DNA from: an uncultured Acidobacteriota bacterium
GTDB taxonomy: Bacteria > Acidobacteriota > Vicinamibacteria > Vicinamibacterales > CAVVIG01
Assembly: GCA_963711505.1 (NCBI GenBank)
Contig: CAVQEJ010000003.1
Location: 781,564-845,563 of the forward strand
Direction: 5' to 3'
DNA length: 64,000 bases
The position numbers and the translations under genes were made by a program. The notes beneath the pieces are model-generated. The model was not told where the DNA came from. It saw nothing but the letters and a program-made list of their open reading frames with translations, and searched no databases. Every line of letters begins with the position of its first letter. Within the stretch, counting starts at the first letter, position 1. Shown piece after piece: positions 1-64,000 of this stretch.

Positions 1-921
1 GGGACACGGTCGAACTCATCAACGGCACGGTGCACGACATCCGCGGCAACGTCGTCCGGATCGTCCAGTCGGTGGCGGACGTGGCCGCGCGGACGCAGAC
101 CATCATCAACACCGTCGGCAAGGATCTCCAGCGGATCGCCGCCGCCGGCGTCCGGATCGCCGCCGACGTGCGGCACGTGGCCGACAACCTGCGGGAGGGG
201 AAGGGAACGATCGGCAAGCTGCTGACCGACGACGAGCTGTACCGGCAGGTGACGGGCGTCATGAAGACGTCGGGTGAGATTGCCACGCGCGTGCGCGACG
301 TCATCGGCGAAGTCGACAAGGTCATCGCCAAGGTGCAGGGCAGCGGCGGACGGGTGCAGGGCGTTGTCACGAACCTGCAGGAGACGATGGACAGCGCGCG
401 GACGGCCCTCGGCGACATTTCCGACGCCATGGAGGCGCTGAAGCACAACTTCCTGCTGCGCGGCTTCTTCCGCGGCCGGGGCTACTTCGACCTCAGCCAG
501 CTCTCGCCGTCCGAGTACCGGTCGGACGTGCTGGAGCGCGGCAACCGGAAGCGGCTCCGGATCTGGCTGAACGCCGACGTGCTGTTCACCACGGGCTCGG
601 ACGGCCTGGAGCAAGCTGACCGACGGCGGCAAGGTCCGGATCGACTCGGCCATGGCAGGCTTCCTGCCGTACCTGCCCGACGCCGTGCTCATGGTGGAGG
701 GCTACGCGCGGCAGGGCTCGCGGGCGCAGCAGTTCCTCCACGCGCGCGACCGCGCCGCCATCGTCCGCTCGTACCTGCTCGAGCGCTTCCACCTGGACCC
801 GAAGACGACCGGACTGATGCCGCTCGGCGCGGAGGCCTCCGACAGCCCGGACGGTCGCACGTGGGACGGCGTGGCCTTGTCGCTCTTCGTCGACCGGAAT
901 CGGCTGGACGGCGGACGCTGA
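1..921 (+). CDS. MlaD/MCE-family protein, C-terminal portion, with OmpA-like C-terminal domain (5' end outside window; apparent +1 frameshift near 612)
   Basis: The frame is open from the window edge (frame of ORF 30..956) and encodes a long helical MlaD/MCE-type region. The sense continues in the frame of ORF 652..921 (LMVEGYA...RDRAAIVRSYLLERF, OmpA_C-like). Junction SDGLE/KLTDGGKVRIDSAM. Confidence 0.55.
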
Positions 922-999
922 CCGGCCGGTTTACCGGCGTCGGGCCGGAATGGTAAGGTGAAGTAGATCCCGGATGAGGTCGCCAATGGGGAGGGAACC

Positions 1000-1275
1000 G
1001 TGAGAGAACCCGTACAGGTCGCCGCGGCGACGGTCCTGGGGGCGGTGATCGGTGGCGTGGCCGGCTACCTGTTCTTCACGGAACGGGGACGGCGCGTGCG
1101 CCGCGATCTCGAGCCGGGCCTCGAGGAACTGACGCGCGAGCTCGTGCGGCTGCGGACGACGCTGCGCAAGGCGTCGCGGGCGGCCGAGGAAGGCGGTCGG
1201 CTGCTCGACGAACTGGCCACGGCCGGCGGCGATGCCGGCTGGCCGGAGACGCCGCGCCAGAGTTCGCCGTTCTGA
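1000..1275 (+). CDS. YtxH-like small membrane-anchored protein
   Basis: 91-aa ORF with a GTG start preceded by GGGGAGGGA. N-terminal Gly-rich hydrophobic helix (AAATVLGAVIGGVAGYLFFTERGRR) followed by a charged helical tail, typical of YtxH/DUF948-like proteins. Confidence 0.5.
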   Translation: MREPVQVAAATVLGAVIGGVAGYLFFTERGRRVRRDLEPGLEELTRELVRLRTTLRKASRAAEEGGRLLDELATAGGDAGWPETPRQSSPF

Positions 1276-1302
1276 GGTGCCCGGCCGTGCCGTCTGAGAT
1301 GC

Positions 1303-2290: not shown

Positions 2291-4465
<2,175 letters not shown>

Positions 4466-4466: not shown

Positions 4467-5249
4467 TGGCGGCGGAGCAGCGCCCCGGCGTCCGCGTCGA
4501 GCTGAGCGACGATCGGTGCCGCATGCGCATCGTGCTCGACGGCCCCCGCGGACACGTGCTCACCGATCGCATGGTCGGCGTGATGCGGAAGGCGCTGGAT
4601 CGGGCCGCCGGCGAACCTCGTTTGCGGCTGCTGACGTTCGAGGCCGACGAGGGCGACTTCAGCTTCGGCTCGAGCGTCGACGAGCACGCGCCCGGGCCGA
4701 TTGCCGATGTGCTGCCGCGCTTCCACGATCTCGTCCGGGCCTGGCTCGACGTGCCGTGCGTGACCGCGGCGCTCGTCGCGGGCCGGTGCCTCGGCGGCGG
4801 GTTCGAGCTCGCGCTCTGCTGCGATGTCATCTTTGCGGCCGACGACGCCGAGTTCGGCCTGCCCGAGATTGTCGCTCGGTCTGTTCCCGCCGGTCGGGGC
4901 CATCCTGCTGCCGGCGCGCGTCGGTGCGGCCCGCGCCGCCAGTGCGATCGTCACGGGCGAGAGCCGTCCGGCGGCGGCGTGGCAGGCGGCCGGGCTGATC
5001 GAGCGGTTGGCGCCGGCCGAGGCGCTGCGCACGATGGTCGACGAGTGGTACGAGCGCCACCTGGAGGGCCGATCGGCCGTCGCGCTCGGCCACGCGGCCC
5101 GGGCGGCCCGGCTGGCCCTGGCCGACACCGTCGCGCGGCTGCTGCCGGAATCGGAGCGCCGCTATCTGGCCGAGCTCATGCGGACGGCCGACGCGGCCGA
5201 AGGGGTCGCCGCGTTCCTGGCGAAGCGTGCACCGCGGTGGACGGGGTGA
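4466..5249 (+). CDS. Enoyl-CoA hydratase/isomerase (crotonase) family protein; +1 frameshift near 4872
   Basis: ATG overlaps the upstream TGA (TGATG). Crotonase core [30 protein letters not shown], then the frame switches to ORF 4824..5249 ([17 protein letters not shown]...[14 protein letters not shown]). Confidence 0.8.
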
Positions 5250-8020: not shown

Positions 8021-8022
8021 AA

Positions 8023-9925: not shown

Positions 9926-10024
9926 TCACACGACCAGCACAAGCGTCCAATTGATCATGCTTTTCCGGTATGAGTTCCTGACCGGAACGCTGGAGTAGAA
10001 GCCTTGACAACGGCACACATCACG

Positions 10025-10535
10025 ATGAGGCTCCTGCGGGCTGCGACGGCGGCTGCCGTGACCCTCGCAGCGGTATTCGGGCTGGTCTGGGTGATCAGGG
10101 CAGCGAGCGGGACGGCGAATCTGAGCGTCTCGGCGAGCGTCAGTGCCAACTGCACGATTACGACGGCCGCGGTGGCCTTTGGGGCCTACGATCCGATCGG
10201 CGCCAACGCCACGGCCAACCTCGACGCGACGGGCACGGTGACGGTTGCGTGCACGAAGGGCACGTCGGCCACCATCGGGCTCGGCCTCGGCCAGAATCCC
10301 GCAGCCGGCCGTGCGCAAGATGAGCGACGGCGCCACCGGCCTGCTGACCTACGAACTCTACAAGGACACCACGCGCGCGTCCGTCTGGGGCAATGCCGGT
10401 ACCGATCTGCTGGACACCGGGGCGGCGCCCTCCAAGGCGGCGCGGGCCTTCACCATCTACGGCCGGGTGCCCGCGGCCCAGGATGTCGCCGCCGGCACCT
10501 TCACGGACTCTGTGGTGGCAACCGTTAATTTCTAG
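10025..10535 (+). CDS. SCPU (spore coat protein U) domain pilin, Csu-type fimbrial subunit; +1 frameshift near 10310
   Basis: Signal peptide, then NLSVSASVSANCTITTAAVAFGAYDP...TVTVACTKGTSATIGLG. The sense continues in the frame of ORF 10245..10535 (KMSDGATGLLTYELYKD...WGN...YGRVPAAQDVAAGTFTDSVVATVNF), the canonical SCPU C-terminus. Confidence 0.8.
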
Positions 10536-10543
10536 GTGACTCA

Positions 10544-11329: not shown

Positions 11330-13746
11330 ACGACGGTGGGACATGGAGGGATGGCCACGGCATCGCGCGCGGGCGACCGCCATCGGCCGATCCCGTCTGT
11401 CGGCCACGCCGTCGACCCGCATGATCGCGGCGGCGGCGCTGGTGGCGGTCTTGTCGGTGTCCGCGGCGCGCGCGGCCGACGGACAACGCGCCCTGATCGA
11501 ACTGGTCGTCAACGACGTGCCCCAGGGCAACACGCTGATCGTCCTGCGTGACGGGGAGCTCTGGATCACCGTGAAGGCGCTCGACGACGCGGGCCTCACG
11601 GGCTACCAGGGGCGGCGCGAGTCGATCGACGGCGTGCCGTACGTCCTGGTGTCGTCGCTGGCGCCCGCCATCACCTCGGTCTTCGACGAGCGCGGCCTCA
11701 CGCTTCACCTCACCGCGCGGCCCGAACTGTTCGCCCGCCACACGCTGGCGCTTCAGAACCCGCGGCCGGCCAACATGGTGTACGCGCGGACGCCGAGCGC
11801 CTTCGCGAACTACGCCCTGACCTGGCATCAGGGCCAGCCGGGAATCGACACCTTCCTCGAAACCGCGATGAGCGCGGGGCCGGCCTCCATCGACAGTACC
11901 TTTTCGCGGCTGGCGGCGGACGGCCGGATCGTCCGCAACCTGACGACGCTGACCATCGATGCGCGGTCGCGCCTGCAGCGGTGGAGGGCTGGTGACGTGA
12001 TCGCGCGGGCCGGACCGCTCGACGACAGCGTGATCATCGGTGGGCTGGGCGTCAGCCGCGAGTACGGCCTCGATCCCTACTACCAGTCCTATCCCTCGCC
12101 ATCGATCTCGGGGACCGTGACCACGCCCGCCACGGTCGACGTGTACGTGGATGGTCGTCTCGTCCGGCAGGAGCCCCTCGCGCCCGGGCCGTTTCAGGTG
12201 ACCCAGCTGCCGTTGTCGGCCGGGCTCGGCACGGCCGCGTGGTCGTGCGCGACGCCTTCGGCCGGGAGCAGCAGTTCGTCGAGCCGTACTACCTGACCAC
12301 GGCGCTCCTCCGGCGCGGGACACGTGACTACCAGTACGTGGTGGGCGTCGCGCGCAGTCAGGACCTCAGCCGTCCGTCGGCGTACGACACGCCGACGGCC
12401 GTGGCGGTGGACCGTGTCGGCCTGACCGGTTGGCTCACGGCCGGGTATCGGGTCGAAGCCGACCGCCACACCATCAACGGCGGGCCGACCGTCAACCTGC
12501 GTCTGTGGCGTCTGGGCGAGATCGAATGGGCCGGGGCCGTCAGCCGGCAGGCGGAGACGCATCGGTGAGGCCGGCCACCTCGCCTACACGTTCACGGGAC
12601 ACGCCGTCAGTCTGTCGGCGGTGGCGCGGGTCTATTCTCCGCAGTACGCCACGCTGCTGGCGCCGCCGCGCAACCGGTGGGCCTCCCTGGTCTCCGGCGT
12701 GCTCAGTGTGCCGCTCGGACGGCGGATCTCGCTCAGCGTCCAGCATACGATCGACGACCTCGCCGACGTCGAGCCGGGGCGGCCGATGCGGAACCGGCGG
12801 ACGGCGTTGACCGGCACCTGGCGTGCGGCCGGCCGTCTCGAGTTCTACGGGACGGTGGCGTTGAACGAGCAGACCGACAGCGCCAGGCGGCTCGATGTCT
12901 TCGCGGGCGCGAGCCTGCTGCTCGGGACGCAGGACCGCCATCAACGTGGCGCACGACCGGAGTGGGTCGCAGGGACTCACGACGGTGGAGATGCAGCAGT
13001 CGCTGCCGGTGGGGCCCGGTTTCGGGTATCGGCTGAGCGGCGTGGCCGGCGACGGAATCAGCCCCAGCGGCAGCGGCGTGCTGCAGTATCAGGGGGCGTT
13101 CGGTCGCTACGAGGTCACGCGCGACGTCGGCCCGGGGGGCGCGGGCACGTCGGTCAGCGCCAGCGGGGGGCTCGTCGCGATCGGCGGCGGGCTGCACCTC
13201 ACCCGCGCCGTGTCGAGCAGCTATGCGCTGGTCCGCGTGCCGGGCGCCGCTGGCGTGCGGGTGTACGACAACAACCAGCCGGTCGGCCGGACCGGCCGGC
13301 ACGGCAACCTGCTCGTGCCGAATCTGCTGCCGTATTACGGCAATCGTCTCAGCATTGCCGACACCGATCTTCCGCTCGATTACGACATCGAGCACACCGT
13401 GCAGACTATCGCCCCGCCGTTCCAGGGCGGCGCGCTGGTGGCGTTCCTGGCGGAGCGGATTCAGGGGGTCACCGGCCGGGTCGTGCTGACACGCGGCGGG
13501 GCGCGGACCGTGCCGGTCTACGGCAATCTCGTCGTCACGGTCAAGGGCGTCCGGCACGTGTCGCCCATCGGCGAGCAGGGCGAGTTCTACTTCGAGAACC
13601 TGCCCGCCGGGCCGCACCCGGCCGCCGTGGAGTTCGGCGACATGCCATGCGCCTTCACGCTGACCGTGACGCCATCGGCTGCACCATTCATCGATCTGGG
13701 AACCGTAGTCTGTGACGCCGGAGCACCGGCGGGGGGAACGCGATGA
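11259..13746 (+). CDS. Outer-membrane fimbrial usher (CsuD-type); at least 3 frameshifts (~12235, ~12560, ~12930)
   Basis: The sense chains through ORFs 11259.., 12239.., 12621.. and 12895..13746. Usher-like features include ALIELVVNDVPQGNTLIVLRDGELWITVKALDDAGL and VVVRDAFGREQQF. C-terminal region: VRVYDNNQPVGRTGRHGNLLVPNLLPYYGNRLSIADTDLPLDY. The start is uncertain (GTG 11259, ATG 11343 or ATG 11421). Confidence 0.7.
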
Positions 13747-14204: not shown

Positions 14205-14212
14205 GCGAGGCC

Positions 14213-14697
14213 ATGACGAACCGATTCTGCGCCCGTGGCACGCAATGCCGCGCCGGCCGCGCCGCTCTGGCGGTCGCCGCAATCCTGGCTGATGGGCCTG
14301 GCCGCGCCGGCGCAGGCGAAGTGCACGATTTCCAGCACGAGCGTGATCTTCGGGACGTACAACGTGTTCAATACGTCGCCGCTCGATTCGACCGGCACGA
14401 TCTCGTTCAAGTGTGGAAAGAGGGATAAGAACATCCTCATCACGCTCGGTCGCGGAGGCAGTTCGTCGTTCAGTCGCGTGATGCGCAGCGGCACCGAGCA
14501 GATGGCCTACAACCTGTACCGCGACGCCACGCACACGTCGATCTGGGGAGACGGGACGAGCGGCACGGTGGTGTACCAGAACGCGCAGCCGGGGGATCAG
14601 CACGGTGAACCTGACGGTGTTCGGACGAGTGCCGGCAGGGCAGGATGTCGCGGTCGGCACGTACAGCGACAGCGTCGTCGTGACGATCGAGTGGTGA
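14213..14697 (+). CDS. SCPU-domain fimbrial subunit; 2 frameshifts (~14290, ~14594 in a G5 run)
   Basis: The start MTNRFCARG...AALAVAAILA lies in the frame of ORF 14093... The sense continues as LMGLAAPAQAKCTISSTSVIFGTYNV...MAYNLYRDATHTSIWGDG (ORF 14235..). It ends ISTVNLTVFGRVPAGQDVAVGTYSDSVVVTIEW, with TGA at 14695-14697. Confidence 0.75.
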
Positions 14698-15053: not shown

Positions 15054-15142
15054 CGTCCATCAGGGTAGCACAGAGTTGCGGCCGGGTGGGCACCGGGAGT
15101 CGGCAGGCGGGTTGTTCGAGCGCCCGTCCGGAGTCAGAGACC

Positions 15143-15961: not shown

Positions 15962-16014
15962 CGCGGCAGGCTGCCGACGGCGGACAGCGAACACGCGAAG
16001 CGGAGTCAGACACC

Positions 16015-16848: not shown

Positions 16849-16886
16849 CGCTGTCGCGTCGCTGACAGCCTGCTGGAGTGTCAAAC

Positions 16887-18707: not shown

Positions 18708-19579
18708 ATGAACCGTCACTCGACGCGAACATCGGTGCGGCACGCACGACGGCGCTGGTGTGCCGCCGCCGGCGCCACGATGATCGCCATCGCCATCTTC
18801 GGCTGGCCATCGTCGTTCGTCGTGACGGCGCAATTGCTTCGATCGGGGCCGGCCCCGCAGAGCGCGGCCGCGCCGCCGCTGGCGATCCCGCCGTCCCTGG
18901 ACAGCGCGTGTGTTCGCTGCCATGCCGCCAGCCTGAGCAGCAGGGTGCGGGTCCACCTGCAGGAATGGGCAGGATCGCCTCATGGGAAGAACGGCGTCGG
19001 CTGCCAGGATTGCCACGGGGGCGATCCCGAGAGCACCGATGTGGCCACGGCCCACGCGCCGGCCGCCGCCGTCAACGGCCTCAGCCGCACGCAGAGGAGC
19101 ATCCGCCTGTGCGCCAGGTGCCATGCACAGACCGCGGAGGTCTACGAACGCAGTCCTCACTACCCGCTGATCCAGGCTGGCGAAAGACTGATGCCGAGCT
19201 GCGTGACGTGTCATGGCGCCGTGGCGTACGAACGTGTCTCCCCTGAGCGCCTGGAAGCGGAGTGCAGTCAATGTCACAGCGCGGGTCGATCGGCGCCCCG
19301 TCCCGGGATTGCCGGTGGCATCAGACTCCTGCTGGTGGAGCGAGATGCCCTGCTCCGGTTGTGCACAGAGGGCCTGCGCCTCGCGAGCGTGCTCCCGCCG
19401 GGCCCGACGCGCAGCGGCGTCGAAGGGGAATTGACCCACGTCGAACGCGCCTGCACACCGGCGTCCGGGAGACACACTCGACCGACATCGGGCCGTTTGC
19501 GGCAGAAATGCCCACGCTCTACCGGCGGGCGCTGAACGCCGTCGGACAGATGCTGCAGCCGCCGAAGCCGAAACCATAG
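18708..19579 (+). CDS. Pentaheme c-type cytochrome, paralogue B3; -1 frameshift near 19466
   Basis: CVRCH, CQDCH, CARCH, CVTCH, CSQCH. The C-terminal helical domain continues in the frame of ORF 19262..19579 (THSTDIGPFAAEMPTLYRRALNAVGQMLQPPKPKP), collinear with the B1/B2 C-termini. Confidence 0.75.
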
Positions 19580-19603: not shown

Positions 19604-20165
19604 ATGAACCGCACCATCTTCGCAGCCCGTTCAGCCGTCGTCGCGCTGGCGATGTGCATCGCCTACGCGACGCCGGTCCTGTCCGTCTCCGCACCGCCCG
19701 AGACGGTGCCGCCCTGCAGCCCGAACGCCAGGCGGGCGGACCTGAGCTTCACCCTCGATGACATGAACGGCAAGCCCGTGCACCTTGCCGACTACGCGGG
19801 CAAGGTCATCGTGCTGAACTTCTGGGCGACGTGGTGCGGTCCCTGCAAACCGGAGATCCGCGCCCTCGTCGCCTTGCAGGAGAAGGTACGGGACCGCGAA
19901 TCTGCAGGTGCTCGGCGTCTCCGTGGACGACGAACCGGCGGACATGAAGCCCTTTGCGCGCGAATTCGGCATCAACTATCCGCTTCTGCAGGGCAAGGGG
20001 CGCGACGACATTCAGAAGGCCTACGGCCCCATCTGGGGCGTGCCGATGACGTTCATCATCGGTCGGGCCGGAACGCTCTGCCGGACGCATCGCGGGTCGG
20101 TCACCAAGGAGACACTGGAAGAGGAAATCGCCGTATACGTGGGGCAGCGTCCGCCGGGACAGTAG
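19604..20165 (+). CDS. TlpA/ResA/CcmG-like periplasmic thiol:disulfide oxidoreductase (thioredoxin fold, WCGPC); +1 frameshift near 19885
   Basis: Signal or anchor segment, then KVIVLNFWATWCGPCKPEIRALVALQEK. The frame then switches to ORF 19908..20165 (NLQVLGVSVDDEPADMKPFAREFGINYPLL...WGVPMTFIIGRAG). Confidence 0.8.
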
Positions 20166-43757: not shown

Positions 43758-44924
43758 GTGCCCACAGGCGAACGACACGCAGATCTGCGGAAGGCGGTGC
43801 GCGAGCTCTGCCGTTTGTATCCGGACACGTACTGGCGCGAGCTCGACGCGGAGCGGGCGTACCCCGAGGCGTTCGTCCGGACGCTCACCGAGGCCGGCTA
43901 TCTGGCGGCCCTCATTCCGGAAGAGTTCGGCGGATCGGGCCTCGGCGTCACCGAGGCGTCCATCATCCTGGAAGAGATCAACCGCTGCGGCGGCAACGCC
44001 GGCGCCTGCCATGCGCAGATGTACGTGATGGGGACGCTGCTGCGCCATGGCTCCGATGCCCAGAAGCAGCGCTACCTGCCGAAGATCGCCAAGCGGCGAG
44101 CTGCGGCTCCAGGCGTTCGGCGTCACCGAGCCGACCACCGGTTCCGACACCACGCAGCTCAAGACGATGGCCGTCCGCAAGGGCGATCGCTACATCGTCA
44201 ACGGCCAGAAGGTCTGGATCTCGCGTGCGGAACACTCGGACCTGCTGCTGCTGGTCGCCCGCACGACGCCGATCGAGCAGGTGAAGAAGCGGACCGAGGG
44301 GCTGTCGATCCTGCTCGTCGATCTGCGGCAGGCCGTGGGGCACGGCCTCACCATCCGGCCGATCCGGACGATGATGAACCACGCGACGACCGAGCTGTTC
44401 TTCGACGACCTCGAGGTGCCGGTGGAGAACCTGGTCGGCGAGGAGGGGCGCGGGTTCCGCTACCTGCTCGACGGCCTCAACGCCGAGCGGATCCTGATTG
44501 CGGCCGAGTGCATCGGCGACGGACGATGGTTCGTCGACCGCGCGACGAGATACGCGAAGGAGCGGGTCGTCTTCGGCCGCGCGATCGGCCAGAACCAGGG
44601 CATCCAGTTCCCGATCGCCCGGGCGCACGTGAACGTCGAGGCCGCCGACCTGATGCGGTTCCAGGCGGCCGACATGTTCGATCGCGGCGAGGCCTGCGGC
44701 GCCGAGGCGAACATGGCGAAGCTGCTCGCGGCCGACGCGTCGTGGGAGGCGGCCAACGTCGCCGTGCAGACCTACGGGGGCTTCGGCTTCGCCGAGGAGT
44801 ACGACATCGAGCGGAAGTTCCGGGAGACGCGGCTCTACCAGGTGGCCCCGATCTCCACCAATCTCATCCTGACCTTCGTCGCCGAGCACGTGCTCGGGCT
44901 GCCGCTAGGTCGTGGAATGACTGA
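43758..44924 (+). CDS. Acyl-CoA dehydrogenase; 2 frameshifts (~44091, ~44900)
   Basis: GGAGG lies before GTG 43758. YPEAFVRTLTEAGYLAALIPEEFGG..., then SGELRLQAFGVTEPTTGSD...VNGQKVWISRA...YGGFGFAEEYDIERKFRETRLYQVAPISTN. The expected ending GLPRSWND* is restored in the first frame. Confidence 0.8.
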   Translation: MPTGERHADLRKAVRELCRLYPDTYWRELDAERAYPEAFVRTLTEAGYLAALIPEEFGGSGLGVTEASIILEEINRCGGNAGACHAQMYVMGTLLRHGSDAQKQRYLPKIAKRRAAAPGVRRHRADHRFRHHAAQDDGRPQGRSLHRQRPEGLDLACGTLGPAAAGRPHDADRAGEEADRGAVDPARRSAAGRGARPHHPADPDDDEPRDDRAVLRRPRGAGGEPGRRGGARVPLPARRPQRRADPDCGRVHRRRTMVRRPRDEIREGAGRLRPRDRPEPGHPVPDRPGARERRGRRPDAVPGGRHVRSRRGLRRRGEHGEAARGRRVVGGGQRRRADLRGLRLRRGVRHRAEVPGDAALPGGPDLHQSHPDLRRRARARAAARSWND

Positions 44925-46253
44925 CGACGTCTCCGTTTCTTCCATGCTCCCTACTCTCCGGCCTCACCGTCGTCTCGCTCGAGCAGGCGGTGGCCGCGCC
45001 GTTCGCCACGCGGCAGCTCGCCGATCTGGGGGCGCGGGTCATCAAGATCGAGCGGCCCGGAGTCGGCGATTTCGCCCGCGGCTACGACACGACGGTGAAG
45101 GGGCTGGCGAGCCACTTCGTCTGGCTGAACCGATCGAAGCAGTCGCTGACGCTCGACATCAAGCAGCCCGAGGGGCGCGAGGCGCTGGCGCGGCTGCTGG
45201 CGCGGGCCGACGTGTTCGTGCAGAACCTGGCGCCGGGAGCGTCGGCGCGCCTGGGGCTCGACGCCGGCACGCTGCGCGCCCGCCATCCGCGGCTCATCGT
45301 CGGCGACCTGTCGGGATACGGCTCGACCGGTCCGTACCGGGACAAGAAGGCCTACGACCTGCTGATTCAGAGCGAAGTCGGACTGGTGTCGATCACGGGC
45401 ACGCCCGAGACGCCGTCGAAGGTCGGAATCTCGGTCGCCGACATCGCGGCGGGGATGTACCCTCTATTCGGGCATCCTGAGCGCGCTGCTCGTCCGCGAG
45501 CGGACGGGGGAGGGAACCGCGCTGGAGGTGTCGCTGTTCGAGGCCCTGGGCGAGTGGATGAGCTACCCGGTCTACTACGCCTCCGGGGGCGGAGCCGCCC
45601 CGGCCCGAACGGGGGCGAGCCACGCCGCCATCGCCCCGTATGGACCGTTTCCCGCGGCTGACGGGTCGGTCTACCTCGGCGTGCAGAACGAGCGCGAGTG
45701 GCGCCGGTTCTGCGAGCAGGTGCTCGGCCAGCCGGCGCTCGCCTCCGATCCGCGGTTCGACTCGAACTCCCGGCGCGTCGAGCACCGGGCGGCGCTGCAC
45801 GCCGAGATCGAGCGGGTGTTCGGCGGGCTGTCGAGCGCCGATGTCGTGGCGCGGCTCGACGCGGCCGGCATCGCGTACGCACGGATGAACAGCGTCAGCG
45901 AGTTCGCGGCGCATCCGCAGCTGGCGGCACGCGACCGCTGGCGGACGATCGGATCGCCCGCGGGCCCGCTGCCCGCCCTGCGTCCACCGGTGACGGTCGA
46001 GGGGGAAGAGCCGGTGATGGGCCCCGTGCCGGCGCTCGGCGAGCACACCGACGCGCTGCTCGCCGAAATCGGTTTCGACGCCGCCACGATCGCCGAGTGG
46101 CGGACGCGAGAGGGGATCGTGCGAGAGGATCGACGGGGCATTGAGAATCGAAGCATTGCAGAGATTGGGAAACGACGCGAGACGCGTGGACGTGGTGACG
46201 CATCGCAGGAATCGGCGCGTGGCACGTCGCACGCATGGCACATCGCGACGTGA
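44917..46253 (+). CDS. Family III CoA-transferase (CaiB/BaiF/Frc-like); 2 frameshifts (~44948, ~45462); 3' tail doubtful
   Basis: LLSGLTVVSLEQAVAAPFATRQLADLGARVIKIERPGVGDFARGYD...NRSKQSLTLD...SGILSALLVRERTGEGTALEVSLFEA...LGEHTDALL. The last ~45 codons (46110-46253) are lower in GC and Arg-rich, so they may be read-through. Confidence 0.75.
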
Positions 46254-46785: not shown

Positions 46786-48118
46786 GCGTCCGGACGTCCT
46801 CGAGGCGCTCGAAGGTCCGCAGCGCCTCGAGCGCGCGGGACGCCGCGTCGGCGGGGACGGCCCGCCGGGCGCACGCCAGGAACTTGCCTTCCAGCTCTTC
46901 ACGACTCGCCGGCCGCGCGGGGTAGCCGCGCGCGCCGTCGGCCCGCTGCACGAGCTGGCGCCCGTCGCGCGAGCCGCACGGTGACGATCGCCTGCGTCAG
47001 CGACGGCGCGTTCCGGCCCAGCTCCGGGTCCACCCGCATCGTTACCGCCGGCAGCAGCTGCTGCAGGCGCGGATCGGTCAGCCGGTGCTCCTCGAAGGTG
47101 TCGATGGTCACGCGGCCGTCGGCCACGGCGGCGGCCGCGCAGAACGGCATGCTGAACTTCGCCTCCAGCCCCGTGCGGGGACGGTCGTAAATCAGCACCG
47201 TCGGCGTGACGGCGTCGACCGCCACGTCAACGGCGGCGACGGTCTCGACGCCGAAGCCGTGGCGTGTGCGCAGATCGAGCAGGGCATCGAGCGCCGGATG
47301 CGTGCCGGCGCACGACGGGTACAGCTTCACCGTGATTCCCGTCTCGAGAATCTCCCACCGGGTGCCGAGTCGTTCGACGTCGTCGCCGAGCTCGCGGTGC
47401 GTACCGTCCATGGCGGCGAGCAGGCCCTGCGGTCCTTCGATCGCGAGCGCGGAAGCCGTGAGGCCCGCGCGGGCGAGCAGCGCCGCCAGCACGCCGTTGC
47501 GAGCCGCCAGCCCGGCATGCAGCGGCTTGGTCATCGTGCCGAAGTTCTCCTTCAGGCCGGAGGCCTCGGAAGCGGCGATGGCGAGTGCGCGCGCCGTCGT
47601 GGCCGCGTCGAGTCCGAGGATGCGCGAGACGCACGCGGCGGCCCCGAGCGTGCCGAGGGTCGACGTGCAGTGCCAGCCGCGCTGGTAGTGTGACGGGTTC
47701 AGCGCGCGGCCCAGCACCGCCTCGATCTCGAAGCCGACGACGTAGCCGTCGAGCAGGCGGCGGGCTGGCGCGCCGGCCAGCTCGCCGGCAGCCAGCGCGG
47801 CCGCCACCAGCGGCGCGCTCGGGTGGGCGAGCGAGACGAAGCACATGTCGTCGTAGTCGAGCGCATGGGCGGCCGTGCCGTTGGCGAGTGCGGCCATCGT
47901 GGCGCTGGTCCGCTGCGCCGTGCCGAGGATCGTGGCGGCCGGCGTGCCGCCTTCGGCTTCGGTCACCTGCTGGACGGCGCGGCCGGCCGGCTCGGCCGAG
48001 CCCGCCAGCGTGACACCAATCGTGTCGAGGAAGGCGCGGGCCGCGGCTGTGGCCGCCGCGTCGGGCACCTGGGCGCCGGCGGTGAAGGTGGCGAGGCGTC
48101 CGGCAGCGTCGTCGTCAT
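46715..48118 (-). CDS. MmgE/PrpD family protein (2-methylcitrate dehydratase-like); 2 frameshifts (~48100, ~46968)
   Basis: ATG 48118 (MTTTL..) must shift to reach ...RLATFTAGAQVPDAAATAAARAFLDTIGV. Core motifs: HALDYDD, HPSAPLVAAALA, WHCTSTLGTLGAAA. The C-terminal part lies in ORF 46715..46951. The 3' end overlaps the convergent MaoC gene by ~70 nt, so the true stop may differ. Confidence 0.75.
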
Positions 48119-48125: not shown

Positions 48126-48981
48126 TTACTCTCCGAGGATGGCGCGGGCGCGTTGCACCGTGGGCGTGTCGATCATCCGTCCGTCGATCTGCGCCGTGCC
48201 GCGGCCCGAGCGGGCCGCGGCGTCGTAGGCGTCGATCACGCGCTGGGCCCACGCCCGCGCCTCCGGGCTGGCGCTCAGCACCTCGTGAATGGGCGCGATC
48301 TGGGCCGGATGAATGGCGAGCTTCGCGCGGAAGCCGAAGCGACGGGCGCGCCGCGTATCCTCCCGTACGCGCTCGGGATCGCGGAACTCGAACGTCGGAC
48401 AGTCGATGGCATCGAGCCCCGCCGCCGCGGCGGCTGTCGTGACCGTGGCCCGCGCGTAGTCGAGCAGCGGAGAGTCGTCGGCGATCTCGGACGAGTCGAC
48501 GCCCATCGCCGCGCGATAGTCCTCGGCGCCGAAGGCGAGCGCCGACAGCCGCGGATGCCGCGTGAAGGCCACGCGTGAGGCCTCGAGGATGCCGCGCGGC
48601 GTCTCCAGCAGCGCGACGATGGCCGGATGGTGACCCTGCGGGTCGGCCGGCCGGGCCGCCAGCCAGTCGGCGACGCGCGCCAGGTCGGCCGGGCTCTCGA
48701 CTTTCGGGACGACGAGCCCGGCCAGCGGCAGACGACTCGCGAGGTGGAGGTCGGCCTCCTGCAGCCCGGGCTCGGCATTGAGCCGGACGATAGACGCGCG
48801 CGGCGGGTGCGGCGAACACGCCCATGGTCGCCGCGATGGTCTCGCGCGCGGCTGCCTTTTCGGCGGGCGGCACCGCATCCTCGAGGTCGAGGATGATCAG
48901 GTCGGCGTCCGACCGCTCCGCGTGTGCGTACATCGTCGGACGGTTCGCCGGCACGAAGAGGTAACTTCGTCGAAGCATCAC
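48126..48981 (-). CDS. HpcH/HpaI aldolase / citrate lyase beta-subunit-like (CitE; citramalyl-/malyl-CoA lyase-like); frameshift ~48800
   Basis: MLRRSYLFVPANRP...DADLIILDLEDAV, then frame of ORF 48126..48878 (VRLNAEPGLQEADL...GLVVPKVES...ALLETPRGIL...ALAFGAEDY...KLAIHPAQI). Confidence 0.8.
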
Positions 48982-51697: not shown

Positions 51698-54100
51698 GGG
51701 CGATCGGCAGGCGCCGGGCTGGCCCGGCATTCCGGCGCGGTGGACGTCGAGTGCGAAGAGCGGGATCGGCACGTCGCTGAACGCGGTGAGTCGCGTCTGG
51801 TTCACGCTCAGCCACGGCATCCTGAACGAGATCTACTTTCCGCGCATCGATCGCGCGTGCACGCGCGACTGCGGCCTCGTCGTCACCGACGGCCAGACGT
51901 TCTTCTCCGAGGAGAAGCGCGACACGCTGTCGCGCACCGAGCCGTTCGCGCCGGGGGTGCCGGCCTATCACATCGAGAACACGTGCAGCGAGGGGCGGTA
52001 CCGCATCGAGAAGGACGTCCTGGCCGATCCGCGCCGGCACGTGGTCTGGCAGCGCATCCGGTTCACGCCGCTCCAGGGCACGCTGGCCGACTACCGGCTG
52101 TACGTCATCCTGTCGCCGCACCTGGGGAACCAGGGAGCCGGCAACTCCGCCTGGGTCGGCGACTACAAGGGCACGCCGATGCTCTTCGCCCAGCGCGACG
52201 CGCTCGCCATGTCGCTCGCGTCGTCGGCGCCCTGGCGCAGCCGGTCGGTCGGTTTCGTCGGCGTGTCGGACGGCTGGCAGCAGCTGCACGCGCATCGCAT
52301 GCTGCCGGAGACCTGGGATCGGGCGGACAACGGGAACGTGGCGCTGACGGGCGAGATCGATCTCGAGGCGTGCGGCGGCGAGGTGATGCTGGTGCTCGGC
52401 TTCGACACCAACGCGCAGGAGGCCGGCCAGCTCGCGCGCTGGAGCCTGGACGAAGGCTTCGACGCCGTGCGGGACGCCTACGTCGGAGAGTGGCAGCGCT
52501 GGATCGACTCGCTCGCGCCGCTCGGCCGCATGCCGGAGCGCCGGCGCGAGCTGAATCACATCAGCGCCATGGTCTTCAAGGTGCACGAGAGCAAGCCGCT
52601 GCCCGGCGGCCTCATCGCCAGCCTCTCGATCCCCTGGGGCGACACCAAGGGCGACCTGGACCTGGGCGGCTATCACCTCATCTGGCCGCGCGATCTCGTG
52701 GAATCGGCCGGCGGGCTGCTCGCCGTCGGCGCGCCGCATCGCGTGCGCGACGTCCTGGAGTTCCTGCGCGTGACGCAGGAGGCCGACGGGCACTGGCCGC
52801 AGAACATGTGGCTCGACGGCACGCCGTACTGGAACGGCGTGCAGATGGACGAGACGGCCTTTCCCATCCTGCTGGTGGATCTCGCCGAGCGTGAGGGCGC
52901 GATCAGCGCCGACGAGGCGCGTGCGCACTGGCCCATGATGAAGCGGGCGGCGGCCTTCCTCGTGCAGCACGGCCCCGTCAGCCAGCAGGATCGCTGGGAG
53001 GAGGATCCCGGCTACTCGCCCTTCACGCTGGCCGTCGAGATCGCCGCGCTGCTCGTGGCCGCCGACCTGGCCGCCGACTGCGGCGAAGCCGATGTCGCGG
53101 CCTATCTCAGCGAGACGGCCGACGCGTGGAACGACAGCATCGAACGGTGGATCTACGCGCGCGACACGTCGCTCTGCCGCGCGCACGGCGTCGATGGCTA
53201 CTACGTGCGGATCGGATCGGTGGACGGCGCCTGCGCCTCGTCGCCGCTGCACGGCTTCGTCCCGATCAAGAACCGTCCGCCGGCGTCGAGCGAGGCGGAG
53301 GCCGATCTCATCGTCAGTCCCGATGCCCTGGCGCTCGTCCGCTTCGGGCTCCGCGCGCCCGACGACCCGCGCATCGTGAACACGGTCAAGGTCGATCGAT
53401 GCCCTGCTGAAGGTCGAGACCCCGAACGGACCCGCCTGGCATCGGTACAACGACGATGGGTACGGCGAGCACGCCGACGGCCGTGCGTTCGACGGCACCG
53501 GGATCGGCCGGGCCTGGCCCCTGCTGACCGGCGAGCGGGCGCACTACGAACTGGCCGCCGGGCGGATCGAAGAGGCCGAACGGCTCGTCCGGGCGATGGA
53601 GGCCTTCGCCGGCGATTGCGGCCTGCTGCCCGAGCAGGTCTGGGACACCGAGGCCGTGCCGGCGCGCGAGCTGTTTCCGGGCCAGGCCTCGGGGTCGGCC
53701 CGTCCGCTCGTCTGGGCGCACGCCGAGTACGCGAAGATCTGCCGCTCGCTCGCCGACGGCCGGATCTTCGATCGGCCGCCGCAGACCGTGCAGCGCTATC
53801 TGAGCGGGCACGCCCCGGAGCACGTGCGGATGGTCTGGCGCTTCAACAACAAGATCCGCACGCTGGAGCCCGGACGCACGCTGCGCATCGAGACCCCGGC
53901 GCCCGCCGTCGTGCACTGGGGCCTGGACGACTGGACGGACGTCAGGGACACACCGACCCGCGACGCCGGCCTCGGCGTCCACAGCGCCGATTCTGACGAC
54001 CGCGGCGCTGACCATCGGCCGGACGGTCGTGTTCACGCTGTTCTGGCCCGGGGAGCACCGGTGGGAAGGAACCGACTTCCGCGTGAGCGTCTGCGGGTAG
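51690..54100 (+). CDS. GH15 glucoamylase / glucodextranase-type glycoside hydrolase; 2 frameshifts (~53394, ~53990)
   Basis: GIPARWTSSAKSGIGTS...VWFTLSHGILNEIYFPRID is a bacterial or archaeal GH15 N-terminal domain. Catalytic region: YHLIWPRDLVESA...QDRWEEDPGYSPFT. After the shift: IDALLKVETPNGPAWHRYNDDGYGEH...GSARPLVWAHAEY. The final segment ...TAALTIGRTVVFTLFWPGEHRWEGTDFRVSVCG ends at TAG 54098-54100. Confidence 0.8.
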
Positions 54101-58395: not shown

Positions 58396-59779
58396 ATGCC
58401 CCGTCCGCTTCCGACCGTCCTTGTCGTTGACGATGAAGAGCTCATCCGCTGGGCCCTCGACCAGAGCCTGACGCAGGCTGGATACCGGGTGCTGCAGGCG
58501 GCCTCCGGCCGTGAGGCGCTGGAGCGCTGCAGCAGCGACAGCGTCGACGTCGTCATTCTCGATTACCGGCTTCCCGACTGCGACGGCCTGCAGCTGCTCA
58601 AGCAGATCAAGGACATCGATCCCGAAGTGCCGGTGATCCTCCTGACGGCCTTTTCGTCGGTCGAGCACGCGGTCGAGGCGATGAAGCAGGGGGCGTACCA
58701 CTACGCGAACAAGCCGTTCAACCTGCAGGAAGTGCTGCTGCTGGTGGAGAAGGCGCTCGAGGCCCACCGGCTGCGCCGCGAGGTGCGGGCGCTGCGCGCG
58801 ACCCAGGGGGCTCCCCACAGCGTCGACCGCCTGATTGGGGAATCCCCGGCCATGCAGGCGGTCAAGAGCCTGCTGCGGAAGATCGCATCGGGGCCCGCTT
58901 CGACGGTCCTGCTGACGGGCGAGACCGGCACGGGCAAGGATTCTGGCGGCCAAGGCGATTCACTACAGCAGCGACCGGACCGCGTCGATGTTCGTGAACA
59001 TCACGTGTTCGGCCCTGCCCGAGGCGTTGCTCGAGAGCGAGCTGTTCGGCCACGAGCGCGGCGCCTTCACCGACGCGCGGCAGCAGAAGCGGGGCCTCCT
59101 CGAGATGGCGGGCGGGGGCACGGTATTCCTCGACGAGATCGGGGAGATGCCGCGTTCGCTGCAGGCGAAGCTGCTCCGGTTCCTCGAGGAGAAGACGTTC
59201 CGGCGGGTGGGGGGCCTCAAGGACGTCTCGGTGGACGTCCGCGTGGTGGCGGCCACGAACCGCGACCTCGAGCAGGCGGTCCAGGACGGCCGCTTCCGGG
59301 AGGACCTGTATTACCGGCTCGGGGTGCTGCCGGTCACGATGCCGCCGCTGCGCGACCGCGCCGGCGACGTCACGCTGCTGGTGAGATACCTGATCGACAA
59401 CTTCAACCGCGAGTTCGGCAAGCACGTGCAGAGCGCGTCGGCCACGGCGCTCAGCCAGCTCGAGGCGCATCACTGGCCCGGCAACGTCCGCGAGTTGAAG
59501 AACGCCGTCGAGCGGGCCATGCTGCTCGCCGAGGGTGAGACCCTGACCGTGGACACGTTCGACACGATCGTCGGTCGGTCGGCCGGCTCGCAGATCTTCC
59601 AGCTGCCCGCGAGCGGCGTGAACCTCGAGCACCTCGAGCGCGACCTCGTCAGCCAGGCGCTGCAGCGGACCTCCGGGAGCCGGACCCGCGCGGCGGCCCT
59701 GCTCGGTCTCAACCGCGACCAGATCCGGTATCGCATCGAGAAGTTCGGCCTCGAGGTCGGCGGCCGGCGCGAATCCTGA
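58396..59779 (+). CDS. Sigma54-dependent Fis-family response regulator (NtrC-type: REC + AAA+ + HTH); +1 frameshift near 58941
   Basis: VLVVDDEELIR...ILDYRLPDCDG. Walker A LLTGETGTGKD, then frame of ORF 58988..59779: ESELFGHERGAFTDA (GAFTGA-like), RVVAATNRDL, WPGNVRELKN, and C-terminal Fis HTH AAALLGLNRDQIRYRIEKFG. Confidence 0.85.
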
Positions 59780-60535: not shown

Positions 60536-63500
60536 GGCCGACGCCCTGGCGGGACTGGTCGCTCCGGTCGAAGCTGCGGCTGCTGATCATGACGGCGACC
60601 AGCGTGGCGCTGCTCATCGTCGGCCTGGCCGTGCTGACCGTCACGCGGATGCACTACCGCACCGCGCTGGCCGACGACATGACGGCCGTGGCGAACATCG
60701 TCGGCACCAGCAGCACGGCCGCGGTCGTCTTCCACGACCACCGGACCGCCGCCGGGATCCTCCGCACGCTGGTGGCGAAGCCCCACATCGAGGCCGCGGC
60801 GCTGTACGACGCCGAGGGGCAGCTGTTCGCCGTGTACCAGCGCACGCCGGTGAGCCCCGATGCGGTCCCGGCGCATCCGGGGCCGGAAGGCGTCCGGATG
60901 CAGGGCAACGCGTTCGTCCTGGTGCGGCCCCTGCGCGTCAACGGCGCGCTGGTCGGCACGCTGTACCTGGGGAACGACCTCGGCGCGCTGCGCGGCGGCC
61001 TGATCCGGTTCGGCATCATCGTGCTCGTGGCCATGGGGTGCGCCTGGACCGTGGCGCTGATCCTGTCGGCGCGGCTGCAGCGCGTGGTCTCGGACCCGGT
61101 GCTCGCGCTCGCCGACACCGTCGAGCGGATCTGCCGCGGGAAGGACTACGGGGTGCGCGTCGAGGCGGACGCGCACGGCGAGATCGGCGTGCTCGTCCGA
61201 TCGTTCAACGAGATGCTCGGACAGATCGCCGACCGCGATCGCAAGTTCCAGCAGCAGCAGGACGACCTGGAGGAGATGGTCGCGGTCCGCACGTTCGAGC
61301 TGGAACGCGAACGCCAGCAGCTCCGGCAGATCGTGGCCAACGCCCCGGTGGCCATGGCGATGTTCGACCGGAACATGCGCTACGTCACCTATAGCCGCAA
61401 GTGGCTCACCGACTATCACCTCGAGGGACGCAACATCATCGGCCGCAGCTACTACGAGGTCTTCCCGGAGACGTCGGCCGACCAGATGCGGCTGCACCGG
61501 CGGGCGTTGAGCGGGGAAGAGCTGGCGAGCCCCGAAGACGTGATGGAGCGGCTCGACGGCACGCGGCTGTACCTGCGCTGGGCCATCCACCCCTGGTACA
61601 CGCCCGGCGGGCGAAGTCGGCGGCATCGTCGTCGTCACCGACATCATCAACGAGCTCGTCGAGGCGCGCGAGGCCGCCCTGGAGGCCTCGCGGCTGAAGT
61701 CGGACTTCCTGGCGAACATGAGCCACGAGATCCGGACACCGATGAACGGCATCATCGGCATGACCAAGCTCGCGCTCCAGACGAGCCTCTCGCTGGAGCA
61801 GCGGCAGTACCTCGACACGGCCATGGTCTCGGCGGAATCCCTGCTGTCGGTGCTGAACGACGTCCTGGACTTCTCGAAGATCGAAGCGGGCAAGCTCGAT
61901 CTGGAGGCCATCGAGTTCGACGTGCGCAACACCCTGCACGACGCCGTGAAGCCGGTGGCGATGCGTGCGGACGAGAAGGACCTCGAGCTGCTCTGCCAGG
62001 TGGCCCCCGACGTGCCGGCCGTGCTCGTGGGCGATCCCGGCCGGCTGCGCCAGGTCGTCCTGAACCTCGTCGGCAACGCCGTGAAGTTCACCGACGCGGG
62101 CGAGATCGTCGTCCGGGCGGAAATGGCCGAAGCGCCCGAGGGACGGGGCGTTCTTCATGTGTCCGTGTCGGATACCGGCATCGGCATTCCACTCGAGAAG
62201 CAGCGCCTGATCTTCGATCCGTTCGCGCAGGCCGACGGATCGACGACCCGCCGGTACGGCGGCACGGGGCTGGGGCTGGCGATCTCGGCCAACCTGGTGG
62301 CCGTGATGGGCGGCCGCATCTGGGTCGACAGCGAGCCGGGCCACGGCAGCACGTTCCACTTCACCGTGGCGCTCGAAGGCCGACCCGGCGCGGCCGAGGG
62401 GCCGGGCTCGAAGCCGATTGCCGCGCTGGAAGGCGTGCGGGTCCTGATCGTCGACGACAATGCCACCAGCCGCGGCCTGCTGGCCGACACGCTCGGCGCG
62501 GCGGGCCTCAGTCCCGTCGTCGCCGAGGACGCCCAGACGGCGACTGCGCTGGCGACCGAGGCCAACGAGGCCTGGCGCCCGTTCGCCGTGGCGCTGGTGG
62601 ACGCACGGATGCCGGGCGCCGACGGCTTCGAGACCGCCAAGCATCTGCGCAGCGGCAACGCCCAGGCCGGCGCCGTCATCATGCTGCTCGCCCAGTCGCA
62701 CGGGCCCACCGACGTGCCGCGGTGCCGGGAGGCCGGGGTGGCCTCGTACCTGTTCAAGCCGATCCGCGAGTCCGAGCTGCTGCACACGATCGCCGTCATG
62801 CTCGGGGCGCCGCTCGTCGCCGTGCCGCCGCCGGTGGAGACCCCGGCCGTCGCTCCGGTGGCCCAGGCCGCCGGCCTCAGCATCCTGCTCGCCGAGGACA
62901 ACCCGGTGAACCAGGCGCTGGCCGTCCACCTGCTCGAGGACGAAGGGTACCGCGTGCAGGTCGCGGGCAACGGGCGGGAAGCGGTGGAGCGGCTGGCGGG
63001 CGGGTCGTTCGATCTGATCCTGATGGACCTGCAGATGCCCGAAATGAGCGGCCTCGAGGCGACGGCCGTCATCCGCGAGCAGGAGCAGGGCACGGAACGG
63101 CACATCCCCATCATCGCGCTCACGGCGCATGCGATGAAGGGCGATCGCGAGCACTGCCTCGCCGCCGGCATGGACGAGTACCTGTCGAAGCCGATCATGC
63201 CGGATCAGCTCATGGCGACGATTCAGCGCGTGGCCGGCGGCGGCGCGCCGGCTCGGCGAGCCGGTCGCGGTCGCCTCCGGACAGGCCGATGCCGGCGTCT
63301 TCGATCTCGACGAGGCGCTGCAGCGCGTCCGGGGCGACCGGGTCATGCTCAGCCAGCTCGTGTCGATGTTTGACGAAGACGCGCCGGGCCTGCTGGCCGA
63401 GATCCGGGACGCGGCCGACGCGGGTGACGTCTCCCGGCTGACCCGGGCGGCGCACACGCTGAAGGGGTCCTGCGGGCTGCTGGCGGCACATGCCGCCCAG

Positions 63501-63653
63501 GAGGCCGCCCGACGGATCGAAGAATTCGCGCGTGAGGGTGATCTGGATCACGCCGCCGCGGCGTTGACGTCACTGGACGAACAGATCGCCCGGGTGATGC
63601 CGGAGCTCCGGCGAATCAGGACGGGATCGGGGGTGTCGTCGTGCGAATCATAG
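60532..63653 (+). CDS. Hybrid sensor histidine kinase (TM sensor + HAMP + PAS + HisKA/HATPase + 2 REC + Hpt); 2 frameshifts (~61610, ~63245)
   Basis: HAMP: [22 protein letters not shown]...[15 protein letters not shown]: [17 protein letters not shown]. After the shift, the H-box [18 protein letters not shown] and N/G boxes [25 protein letters not shown]. Two receivers (VLIVDDN...; [10 protein letters not shown]...[11 protein letters not shown]). The Hpt domain ([12 protein letters not shown]) lies in the frame of ORF 63345..63653. Confidence 0.85.
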
Positions 63654-64000
63654 TGGCGGAAGACGATCGACTGTATCGAAAACTCCTCGAGGCCGCCCTG
63701 GCGACACGCGGCTACGCCGTGACGACCTGCGTCGACGGCGTCGAGGCGTGGGAGCGGCTGTCCAAGGAGGCGGGGCCGACGATTGCCATCCTCGACTGGA
63801 TGATGCCGAAGATGGACGGCCTGGAGATCTGCCGACGCATCCGCCAGTCCGCCGTCACGCTGCCGCCCTACGTCATCCTGCTGACGTCCCGTACGCGCAA
63901 GGAGGACATCGTCGCCGGTCTGCAGGCTGGCGCCGACGACTACCTCTGCAAGCCGTTCGATCCCGAGGAGCTGGGCGCCCGCGTCGTCGTCGGCACGCGC
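63641..64000 (+). CDS. Response regulator receiver domain (3' end outside window; output domain unknown)
   Basis: GTG 63641: [20 protein letters not shown]...ILDWMMPKMDGLEICRRIR...LLTSRTRKEDIVAGLQAGADDYLCKPFD. Runs off the window edge. Confidence 0.75.
   Translation, partial: MRIIVAEDDRLYRKLLEAALATRGYAVTTCVDGVEAWERLSKEAGPTIAILDWMMPKMDGLEICRRIRQSAVTLPPYVILLTSRTRKEDIVAGLQAGADDYLCKPFDPEELGARVVVGTR

Follow-up and report, generated by a model that had tools for sequence, protein, structure and literature searches.

The window, the whole 64-kb stretch of DNA that was analysed, comes from a Vicinamibacterales (Acidobacteriota) genome, has a GC content of 70% and holds about 59 protein genes, of which 23 are broken by changes of reading frame, among them gnd, zwf, ackA and a complex-I subunit. 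A sequence-only reading had proposed 36 single-nucleotide frameshifts here; all 36 are true frame breaks, each lying within ~25 nt of its original placement. They are given below as range, best position in parentheses, strand, event and supporting evidence.

610..614 (612), +: +1 nt in an MlaD-like gene (C between CTGGAG and AAGCTG); frameshift-aware alignment to the L086 orthologue
3054..3057 (3056), +: +1 nt (G2 to G3) in a YyaL/DUF255 thioredoxin-domain gene; Pfam, alignment, P0179 with 81% identity over the junction
4869..4872 (4871), +: +1 nt in an enoyl-CoA hydratase gene; ECH_1 Pfam match crossing the junction, alignment to L086
8636..8803, +: net +1 in a SHOCT-like gene; placement limited to a range by a low-complexity linker; frame track, frameshift-aware alignment
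10306..10310 (10309), +: +1 nt in SCPU pilin gene 1; nucleotide alignment to L085, paralogue alignment
12232..12236 (12234), +: -1 nt in a pilus usher gene; L085 alignment, intact 773-aa orthologue P0121
12550..12553 (12552), +: +1 nt in the usher gene (C within a G run, GGGG to GGCGG); L085 alignment
12928..12930 (12929), +: +1 nt in the usher gene (G between two Cs); L085 alignment
14283..14285 (14284), +: +1 nt in SCPU pilin gene 3; L085 alignment, paralogue alignment
14592..14611 (~14596), +: +1 nt in SCPU pilin gene 3, probably in the G5 run 14594-14598; SCPU Pfam match over the junction, paralogues
19440..19470 (~19443), +: -1 nt in the fifth multihaem cytochrome paralogue, near its 3' end; paralogue alignment
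19884..19886 (19885), +: +1 nt in a TlpA/AhpC-type thiol-disulfide oxidoreductase gene (G between AAG and TAC); AhpC-TSA over the junction, three-frame reading
24548..24586, +: net +1 in a BNR/sortilin-repeat gene; one-stretch match to P0299 (62% identity, 1059 aa), alignment
28418..28426 (28420), +: -1 nt in a fatty-acid desaturase gene (T4 run or CC); frameshift-aware alignment against L001
28714..28719 (28716), +: -1 nt in the fatty-acid desaturase gene; Pfam, frameshift-aware alignment
29450..29453 (29452), +: +1 nt in an amine oxidase gene; Pfam, frameshift-aware alignment
29916..29921 (29918), +: -1 nt in the amine oxidase gene; Pfam, frameshift-aware alignment
34114..34118 (34116), -: +1 nt in a nuoN-like gene, near its 3' end; frameshift-aware alignment
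37864..37868 (37866), +: +1 nt in gnd (6-phosphogluconate dehydrogenase); Pfam, frameshift-aware alignment
37895..37912 (37903), +: +1 nt in gnd, second site; frameshift-aware alignment
38816..38820 (38818), +: +1 nt in zwf (G2 to G3); Pfam, frameshift-aware alignment
38898..38903 (38900), +: -1 nt in zwf, restoring the frame; frameshift-aware alignment
39255..39264 (39262), +: +1 nt in zwf; Pfam, frameshift-aware alignment
40500..40518 (40507), +: +1 nt in ackA; Acetate_kinase over the junction, frameshift-aware alignment
44089..44092 (44091), +: +1 nt in an acyl-CoA dehydrogenase gene; frameshift-aware alignment against L002
44893..44901 (~44897), +: -1 nt (or +2) just 5' of the acyl-CoA dehydrogenase stop; three-frame reading against L002
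44947..44954 (~44951), +: +1 nt in a CoA-transferase gene, a few codons past its ATG (44944); direct reading
45459..45462 (45461), +: +1 nt (C2 to C3) in the CoA-transferase gene; Pfam, frameshift-aware alignment
46968..46972 (46970), -: +1 nt in a prpD/MmgE-family gene; Pfam, frameshift-aware alignment
48100..48116 (~48108), -: -1 nt directly after the prpD ATG (48119-48117); direct reading
48787..48791 (48789), -: +1 nt in an HpcH/HpaI aldolase gene; Pfam, frameshift-aware alignment
53392..53395 (53394), +: +1 nt in a GH15 glucoamylase-like gene; Pfam, alignment, homologues
53990..53993 (53992), +: +1 nt in the GH15 gene near its 3' end (T between GAT and CTG); homologues, frameshift-aware alignment
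58940..58943 (58942), +: +1 nt in a sigma-54-dependent response regulator gene (T between GAT and CTG); Pfam, alignment
61600..61605 (61603), +: +1 nt (C2 to C3) in a hybrid histidine kinase gene; Pfam, frameshift-aware alignment
63245..63267 (63263), +: +1 nt in the hybrid histidine kinase gene, between receiver and Hpt domains; frameshift-aware alignment

Four kinds of evidence confirm these positions: a codon-usage frame track; Pfam matches that cross the junctions; protein-to-DNA alignment that allows for frameshifts, with intact orthologues of five independent assemblies as references; and nucleotide alignment to L085, a contig of the closest relative. The Viterbi frame track changes frame within ~20 nt of nearly all listed positions, and at these switches the upstream frame meets no nearby stop codon. 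Pfam matches on the frame-stitched proteins run unbroken over 18 junctions, and the stitched GH15 protein is matched end to end by all 80 homologues (80/80). The remaining sites were placed by paralogues (~14596 and ~19443) or by direct reading (~44897, ~44951, ~48108 and 19885). The acyl-CoA dehydrogenase stop codon falls out of frame after the event at 44893..44901, and the prpD start codon and gene body lie in different frames across 48100..48116. At every one of the 36 sites homology to intact orthologues carries on in the new frame, as the undiminished conservation described earlier implied.

The size and direction of the events are equally well defined. Across all sites 28 are net +1 and eight net -1 (78% insertions), in keeping with an earlier estimate of three quarters; all 33 fine-mapped events involve exactly 1 nt, comprising 25 insertions and eight deletions, with the flanking orthologue residues consecutive. 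No gene carries more than three hits, and none shows other decay. In zwf, a +1 at 38818 is compensated by a -1 at 38900, a measured spacing of 82 nt where 85 nt had been proposed; the conserved peptide between them is still encoded in the shifted frame, which marks the pair as two independent lesions. Two homopolymers named in the sequence-only reading, G5 at 14594 and T4 at 28425, are likewise present as described.

Several further candidates were set aside. One ambiguous candidate, which would be a 37th site, lies at ~8430-8445 at the C-terminus of DUF2089 and was left uncounted; the window's fused DUF2089-SHOCT arrangement may represent the natural state, and the split form in a relative the variant. 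Additional switches in the frame track, absent from the original list of positions, correspond to gene boundaries or model artefacts: the paralogue alignment needs no frameshift at 16839/16941, the switch at 22115 is a gene start (ATG at 22108), those at 9036, 41646 and 46166 are gene ends, and 35489/35631 belong to the nuoK/nuoN spacer, where the alignment proceeds without a shift.

Comparison with orthologous loci, which the sequence-only reading had proposed, revealed, in five independent assemblies (L001 and L086, GCA_028876655.1; L002-L004; L085; L087), intact orthologues for every broken gene. L085, a MEGAHIT short-read contig from a sister lineage rather than the same strain, matches the window at 94.3% nucleotide identity over 4.4 kb, and all five genes there are intact. 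The only frame-breaking differences in this alignment are five 1-nt indels, all in the window, the remaining gaps being multiples of three or net zero; absence of the indels at the nucleotide level thus covers these five sites, and more distant relatives are intact at all others. L086 was reached with a chimeric query of six junction segments, in which YyaL-family matches dominated and through which site 3056 was also confirmed. Loci L005-L010, retrieved by a NadE search, were rejected as syntenic loci, sharing no synteny with the window beyond NadE.

Signs of degeneration are lacking in the same comparisons. Orthologue identity averages ~79% for broken and ~78% for intact genes, a comparison insensitive to extremely recent inactivation, and dN/dS against L085 is 0.25, a measure likewise insensitive to very recent inactivation. 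The alignments contain zero in-frame stops, though 2.6% of possible substitutions would create one, so that the earlier statement that neither stops nor decay accompany the shifts is borne out. No multi-base frameshifts or gene-interrupting insertion sequences (IS) accompany the 36 sites, and the frame track shows no reduction in coding density or codon-usage signal.

The placement of the indels is random. The distances from one site to the next follow an exponential distribution (KS p=0.63), the variance/mean ratio per 4 kb is 1.16, and this Poisson spacing rules out clustering of the kind expected from local low coverage. Homopolymer runs near the sites are no longer than elsewhere, the longest within 2 nt averaging 2.09 nt at the sites and 2.09 nt at random positions (permutation p=0.53); just one of the 85 runs of at least 5 nt is affected, and the inserted base equals its neighbour in 14 of 25 cases, against 50% by chance. 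A homopolymer link was rejected, the sites lacking the concentration in such runs that is typical of older nanopore (R9), 454 or Ion Torrent data. After correction for multiple testing, no enrichment at the sites remains for any 4- to 6-mer; a link to GATC or methylation motifs, suggested by eye at several sites, was discarded, GATC occurring in 519 copies in the window and being unenriched at the sites.

We infer, with a probability of about 0.93, that all 36 frame breaks represent one-base errors of the consensus, which arose in sequence determination or assembly and not in the cell. The earlier preference for error over pseudogenisation is upheld by everything testable without reads, namely the orthologues, the mutational spectrum, the placement and the absence of decay. 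Their most likely origin is an assembly that was noisy or of low coverage and had received no polishing with accurate reads. Stochastic, insertion-biased and position-independent miscalls would have left its consensus with ~0.6 one-base indels per kb, and all 23 genes are most likely intact in the free-living source organism. Long-read assemblies are documented to contain gene-fragmenting indels, low-coverage metagenome bins in particular (PMC9262707; Kastor, PMC12007338). As in such nanopore or PacBio CLR assemblies and bins, 1-nt indels here split conserved genes, homology resumes in another frame, a large share of genes is affected, and the errors are detected by comparing gene length or frame with relatives. 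Nanopore consensus indels are, however, described as homopolymer-derived (PMC9262707), whereas the sites of the window are not concentrated in homopolymers and show a 3:1 ratio of insertions to deletions; the missing homopolymer concentration was counted against consensus error. The profile looks nearer to the position-independent random error described for PacBio raw reads (PMC5093776).

Were the indels real, very recent one-base insertions would number in the hundreds to thousands across the genome of a free-living, high-GC soil member of the Vicinamibacterales, implying either that ~40% of its genes have just begun to collapse or that the cell tolerates, or corrects, pervasive +1 frameshifts in gene expression. 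Either would be remarkable, and the evidence stands strongly opposed, leaving such an outcome very improbable. Inactivation on this scale would be genuine, very recent, genome-wide pseudogenisation, for instance in a newly host-confined or extreme-drift lineage. Some recently host-restricted bacteria, such as Mycobacterium leprae and Sodalis, have pseudogene fractions of this order in pseudogene-rich genomes undergoing reductive evolution, and the indels do stand in the sequence as given. Fractions are also comparable in leaf-nodule Candidatus Burkholderia, which likewise carry many frameshifted genes, some of them repeatedly hit (PMC6054270). Real pseudogenes nevertheless display more deletions than insertions, broad indel sizes, nonsense mutations, a falling coding density and relaxed selection. 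The window shows no such features, the measures of selection being blind to very recent inactivation. Reported bacterial pseudogenes hold 396 deletions against 300 insertions, with 131 of the 396 deletions being 1 nt (PMC6054270), and under the insertion share of real high-GC pseudogenes at least 25 insertions among 33 events have a binomial probability of 1.4e-4. A spectrum of 1-nt events only, with insertions 3:1 over deletions and devoid of nonsense mutations, multi-nt frameshifts and IS, together with genes hit two or three times without extra substitutions, an undiminished coding density and codon-usage signal, and relatives of this 70%-GC soil lineage that keep all affected genes intact, renders pseudogenisation highly unlikely.

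Recoding, in which programmed or high-level ribosomal +1/-1 frameshifting or transcriptional slippage restores the proteins from real frameshifts, is less probable still, to the point of being barely credible. Most events do share one direction (+1 nt), and skipping the extra base would yield intact proteins, much as one skipped base does in programmed +1 frameshifting of prfB (RF2). Known programmed shifts such as that of prfB are conserved, whereas no orthologue conserves any frameshift of the window; the sites share no common slippery sequence or motif, have no stop codon at the shift and lack the long A/T runs that transcriptional slippage needs, the genes concerned number in the dozens and are unrelated, and eight events run in the opposite direction. 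A different origin for the artefact, with the indels added after assembly by mis-parameterised or over-aggressive polishing, a mixed-strain consensus in a metagenome bin or deliberate simulation, would suit indels that are uniformly and randomly placed, strictly 1 nt long and composition-like in their inserted bases, as expected of a simple stochastic process, and a profile that matches no well-known platform-specific signature. Nothing in the sequence separates it from raw consensus error, however, and strain mixing should yield substitutions and 3n variants, not 1-nt insertions at random; we regard such an origin as very improbable, and its consequence for the window would be the same, the indels being artefacts.

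The lesion pattern points to sequencing or assembly error, which makes these frame breaks a warning about quality rather than a biological signal. Calls of genes, pseudogenes, 'fusion proteins', giant ORFs or missing functions from the window should not be relied on before the consensus has been corrected, and this probably holds for the whole parent assembly too. Giant ORFs had been attributed to the frameshifts, which do contribute; the 70% GC content contributes equally, its off-frames seldom meeting stops, so that each error would generate long chimeric ORFs instead of short truncations. The 36 coordinates and directions listed above permit in silico repair of the 23 genes.

A seven-state Viterbi frame track, whose codon-usage model was trained on the long ORFs of the window itself, switched frame within ~20 nt of almost all of the 36 positions listed as frame breaks by the sequence-only reading. 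We then asked, at each switch, how far the upstream frame stays open before its next stop codon. True gene boundaries had such a stop at 0–30 nt; the listed positions mostly had none for hundreds of bases, indicating that the upstream gene there has no proper end. When frame segments were joined and the resulting stitched proteins scanned against Pfam, single continuous matches spanned the following junctions.

Pfam matches spanning frame junctions in stitched proteins (window coordinates)
3055: GlcNAc_2-epim (weak match)
4872: ECH_1
14596: SCPU
19885: AhpC-TSA
28720: FA_desaturase
29460 and 29904: Amino_oxidase
37912: 6PGD
38816 and 38906: G6PD_N
39243: G6PD_C
40508: Acetate_kinase
44093: acyl-CoA dehydrogenase N and M domains
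45459: CoA_transf_3
46966: MmgE_PrpD_C
48790: HpcH_HpaI
53395: Glyco_hydro_15
58940: Sigma54_activat
61602: PAS_4

Comparison with the closest relative, the 5.6-kb MEGAHIT short-read contig L085 (94.3% nucleotide identity to window 10088–14452), placed part of these events to the base. All five L085 genes are intact, including a 773-aa protein to which the stitched pilus usher is 94% identical. Only five single-base differences break frame, all in the window, and they are the breaks previously read at 10310, 12235, 12560, 12930 and 14290; the remaining gaps either have lengths divisible by three or offset one another nearby. Elsewhere, genes were likewise all intact on the related contigs that share the gene order of the window:

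L001, from MAG GCA_028876655.1: window ~27.5–44.9 kb
L002–L004, from Vicinamibacterales MAGs: window ~36.9–51 kb
L086, a different contig of the MAG that contains L001: window 1–9.1 kb
L087, a 34-kb JGI metagenome contig: window ~42–64 kb

Against orthologue proteins, we ran a purpose-written protein-to-DNA alignment permitting one-base insertions and deletions. The orthologue residues flanking each aligned event are consecutive, so each event changes the length by a single base rather than by −2 or +4. Three further breaks emerged from three-frame reading against orthologues. At 24585, an exhaustive search recovered an intact 1059-aa homologue (database protein P0299, 62% identity) that aligns unbroken across the junction of the stitched protein. 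Through frame track, Pfam, alignments, paralogues and direct reading, all 36 listed positions were confirmed.

Placement of the frame breaks (+1, extra base in the window; −1, missing base)
10309: +1, nucleotide alignment to L085
12234: −1, nucleotide alignment to L085
12552: +1, C inside a G run, nucleotide alignment to L085
12929: +1, G between two Cs, nucleotide alignment to L085
14284: +1, nucleotide alignment to L085
612, 3056, 4871: +1, frameshift-aware alignment to orthologues
Somewhere in 8636–8803: net +1, same alignment
28420, 28716, 29918, 38900: −1, same alignment
29452, 34116, 37866, 37903, 38818, 39262, 40507, 44091, 45461, 46970, 48789: +1, same alignment
53394, 53992, 58942, 61603, ~63263: +1, same alignment
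~44897: acyl-CoA dehydrogenase, stop codon lost from frame, three-frame reading
~44951: CoA-transferase, ATG (44944) out of frame with the gene body, three-frame reading
~48108, minus strand: prpD, ATG (48119–48117) out of frame with the gene body, three-frame reading
~14596, ~19443: placed by paralogues inside the window
19885: sequence read as AAG-G-TAC

The 33 fine-mapped events comprise 25 insertions and 8 deletions, every one of 1 nt (28 versus 8 by direction over all 36 sites, which amount to ~0.6 breaks per kb). Their placement resembles a random process: the intervals between sites follow an exponential distribution (KS p=0.63), the variance/mean of site counts in 4-kb bins is 1.16, and the longest homopolymer run no more than 2 nt from a site has a mean length of 2.09 nt, as at random positions (p=0.53). 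Only 1 of the 85 runs of at least 5 nt in the window was struck, and 14 of the 25 inserted bases are the same as a base next to them, where random insertion would give 50%. A k-mer test found no enriched 4- to 6-mers at the sites; an apparent association with GATC vanished given the 519 GATC in the window.

Of ~59 protein genes, 23 are broken, some two or three times; gnd, zwf, ackA and the gene of a complex-I subunit are among them. The broken genes nevertheless show lesions of no other kind, an undiminished codon-usage signal and no added divergence, with mean amino-acid identity to orthologues of ~79% (~78% for intact genes). No in-frame stop occurred across the frameshift-aware orthologue and L085 alignments, in frames where 2.6% of all possible substitutions would yield one. 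After frame correction, the window gives a dN/dS of 0.25 against L085, a measure that would miss very recent inactivation. The two zwf shifts, earlier read as compensating each other, do lie close together (+1/−1, 82 nt apart), but the stretch between them continues to encode the conserved peptide in the shifted frame, marking two independent lesions rather than evolutionary compensation. Real bacterial pseudogenes also look different: those of high-GC Burkholderia are deletion-rich (396 deletions versus 300 insertions), with a 1-nt size in only 131 of the 396 deletions (PMC6054270), whereas the fine-mapped window events are insertion-rich and all of 1 nt. Given the Burkholderia insertion share, at least 25 insertions among 33 events has P = 1.4e-4, and an exclusively 1-nt spectrum would be far less likely still. 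Programmed frameshifting is excluded by the lack of a common motif, the occurrence of both shift directions and the conservation of none of the sites in orthologues.

The lesion spectrum, the lack of decay and the intact orthologues, together with gene-fragmenting indels documented for long-read assemblies and low-coverage metagenome bins (PMC9262707, PMC12007338), support the consensus errors proposed by the sequence-only reading, to which we assign a probability of about 0.93. Nanopore consensus has a homopolymer-centred profile (PMC9262707), unlike the window, whose indels, independent of position and rich in insertions, more closely resemble the random errors ascribed to raw PacBio reads (PMC5093776). 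The same appearance would result from an artefact arising after assembly. As an artefact, the feature has practical consequences for annotation and low biological interest.

GC content is 67–72% across the 64-kb window, which contains one tRNA gene (tRNA-Leu). Nearest matches of its genes are uncultured Acidobacteriota of the order Vicinamibacterales; once its frame is corrected, the zwf product shares 85% identity along its whole length with proteins of Vicinamibacterales metagenome-assembled genomes.

Several gene clusters and gene forms were also observed.

8027–9038: DUF2089 HTH domain and SHOCT-like domain in one fused ORF
10017–14690: chaperone-usher pilus operon of SCPU (spore coat protein U) type, in the order SCPU, PapD-like chaperone, usher, SCPU, SCPU
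15100–19560: tandem array of five paralogous multihaem cytochrome c genes, ~290–300 aa each
20878–21753: ~20-nt GC-rich hairpin repeat clusters on both sides of a 171-aa ORF (21017..21532, minus strand)
34052–36492, minus strand: isolated nuoJ-nuoK-nuoN-like trio, with neither nuoL nor nuoM separating K from N
41895–41940: perfect GC-rich hairpin GGGGGGACTGTCCCGCGGACAGTCCCCGG

DUF2089 and SHOCT-like are two genes with an ATGA overlap in L086, and the fused or split form turns on a one-base difference at ~8430–8445; either form may be the original, and the difference may be a 37th error. A 94% identical copy of the pilus operon lies in the ENA soil metagenome assembly ERZ27256799 (contig k141_407747). 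The cytochromes, with Cytochrome_C7, c3 and c554 matches, form two subfamilies, adjacent copies being 55–70% identical. The nuoJ-nuoK-nuoN-like arrangement is kept in L001, and L002 has full nuoA-H-type genes instead at the same position upstream of gnd. Outside the window, the 816-aa ENA protein P0215 is 69% identical to the YyaL segment of a chimeric query, and its only Pfam domains are enoyl-CoA hydratase (ECH); a possible explanation is a YyaL-ECH read-through fusion in a different public assembly, and this would suggest similar missed-stop or frameshift artefacts elsewhere.

The hairpin 41895–41940, between convergent 62-aa and aldehyde dehydrogenase genes, is probably a bidirectional terminator. 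The 171-aa ORF matches Pfam Y1_Tnp (E=7.7e-8), the IS200-like/REP-associated tyrosine transposase family; with its flanking repeats (CACCGAGCTTCAGCTCGGTG and variants, ~37-nt period), it looks like a REP/RAYT unit, located in the sole extended region classed as non-coding by the codon model.
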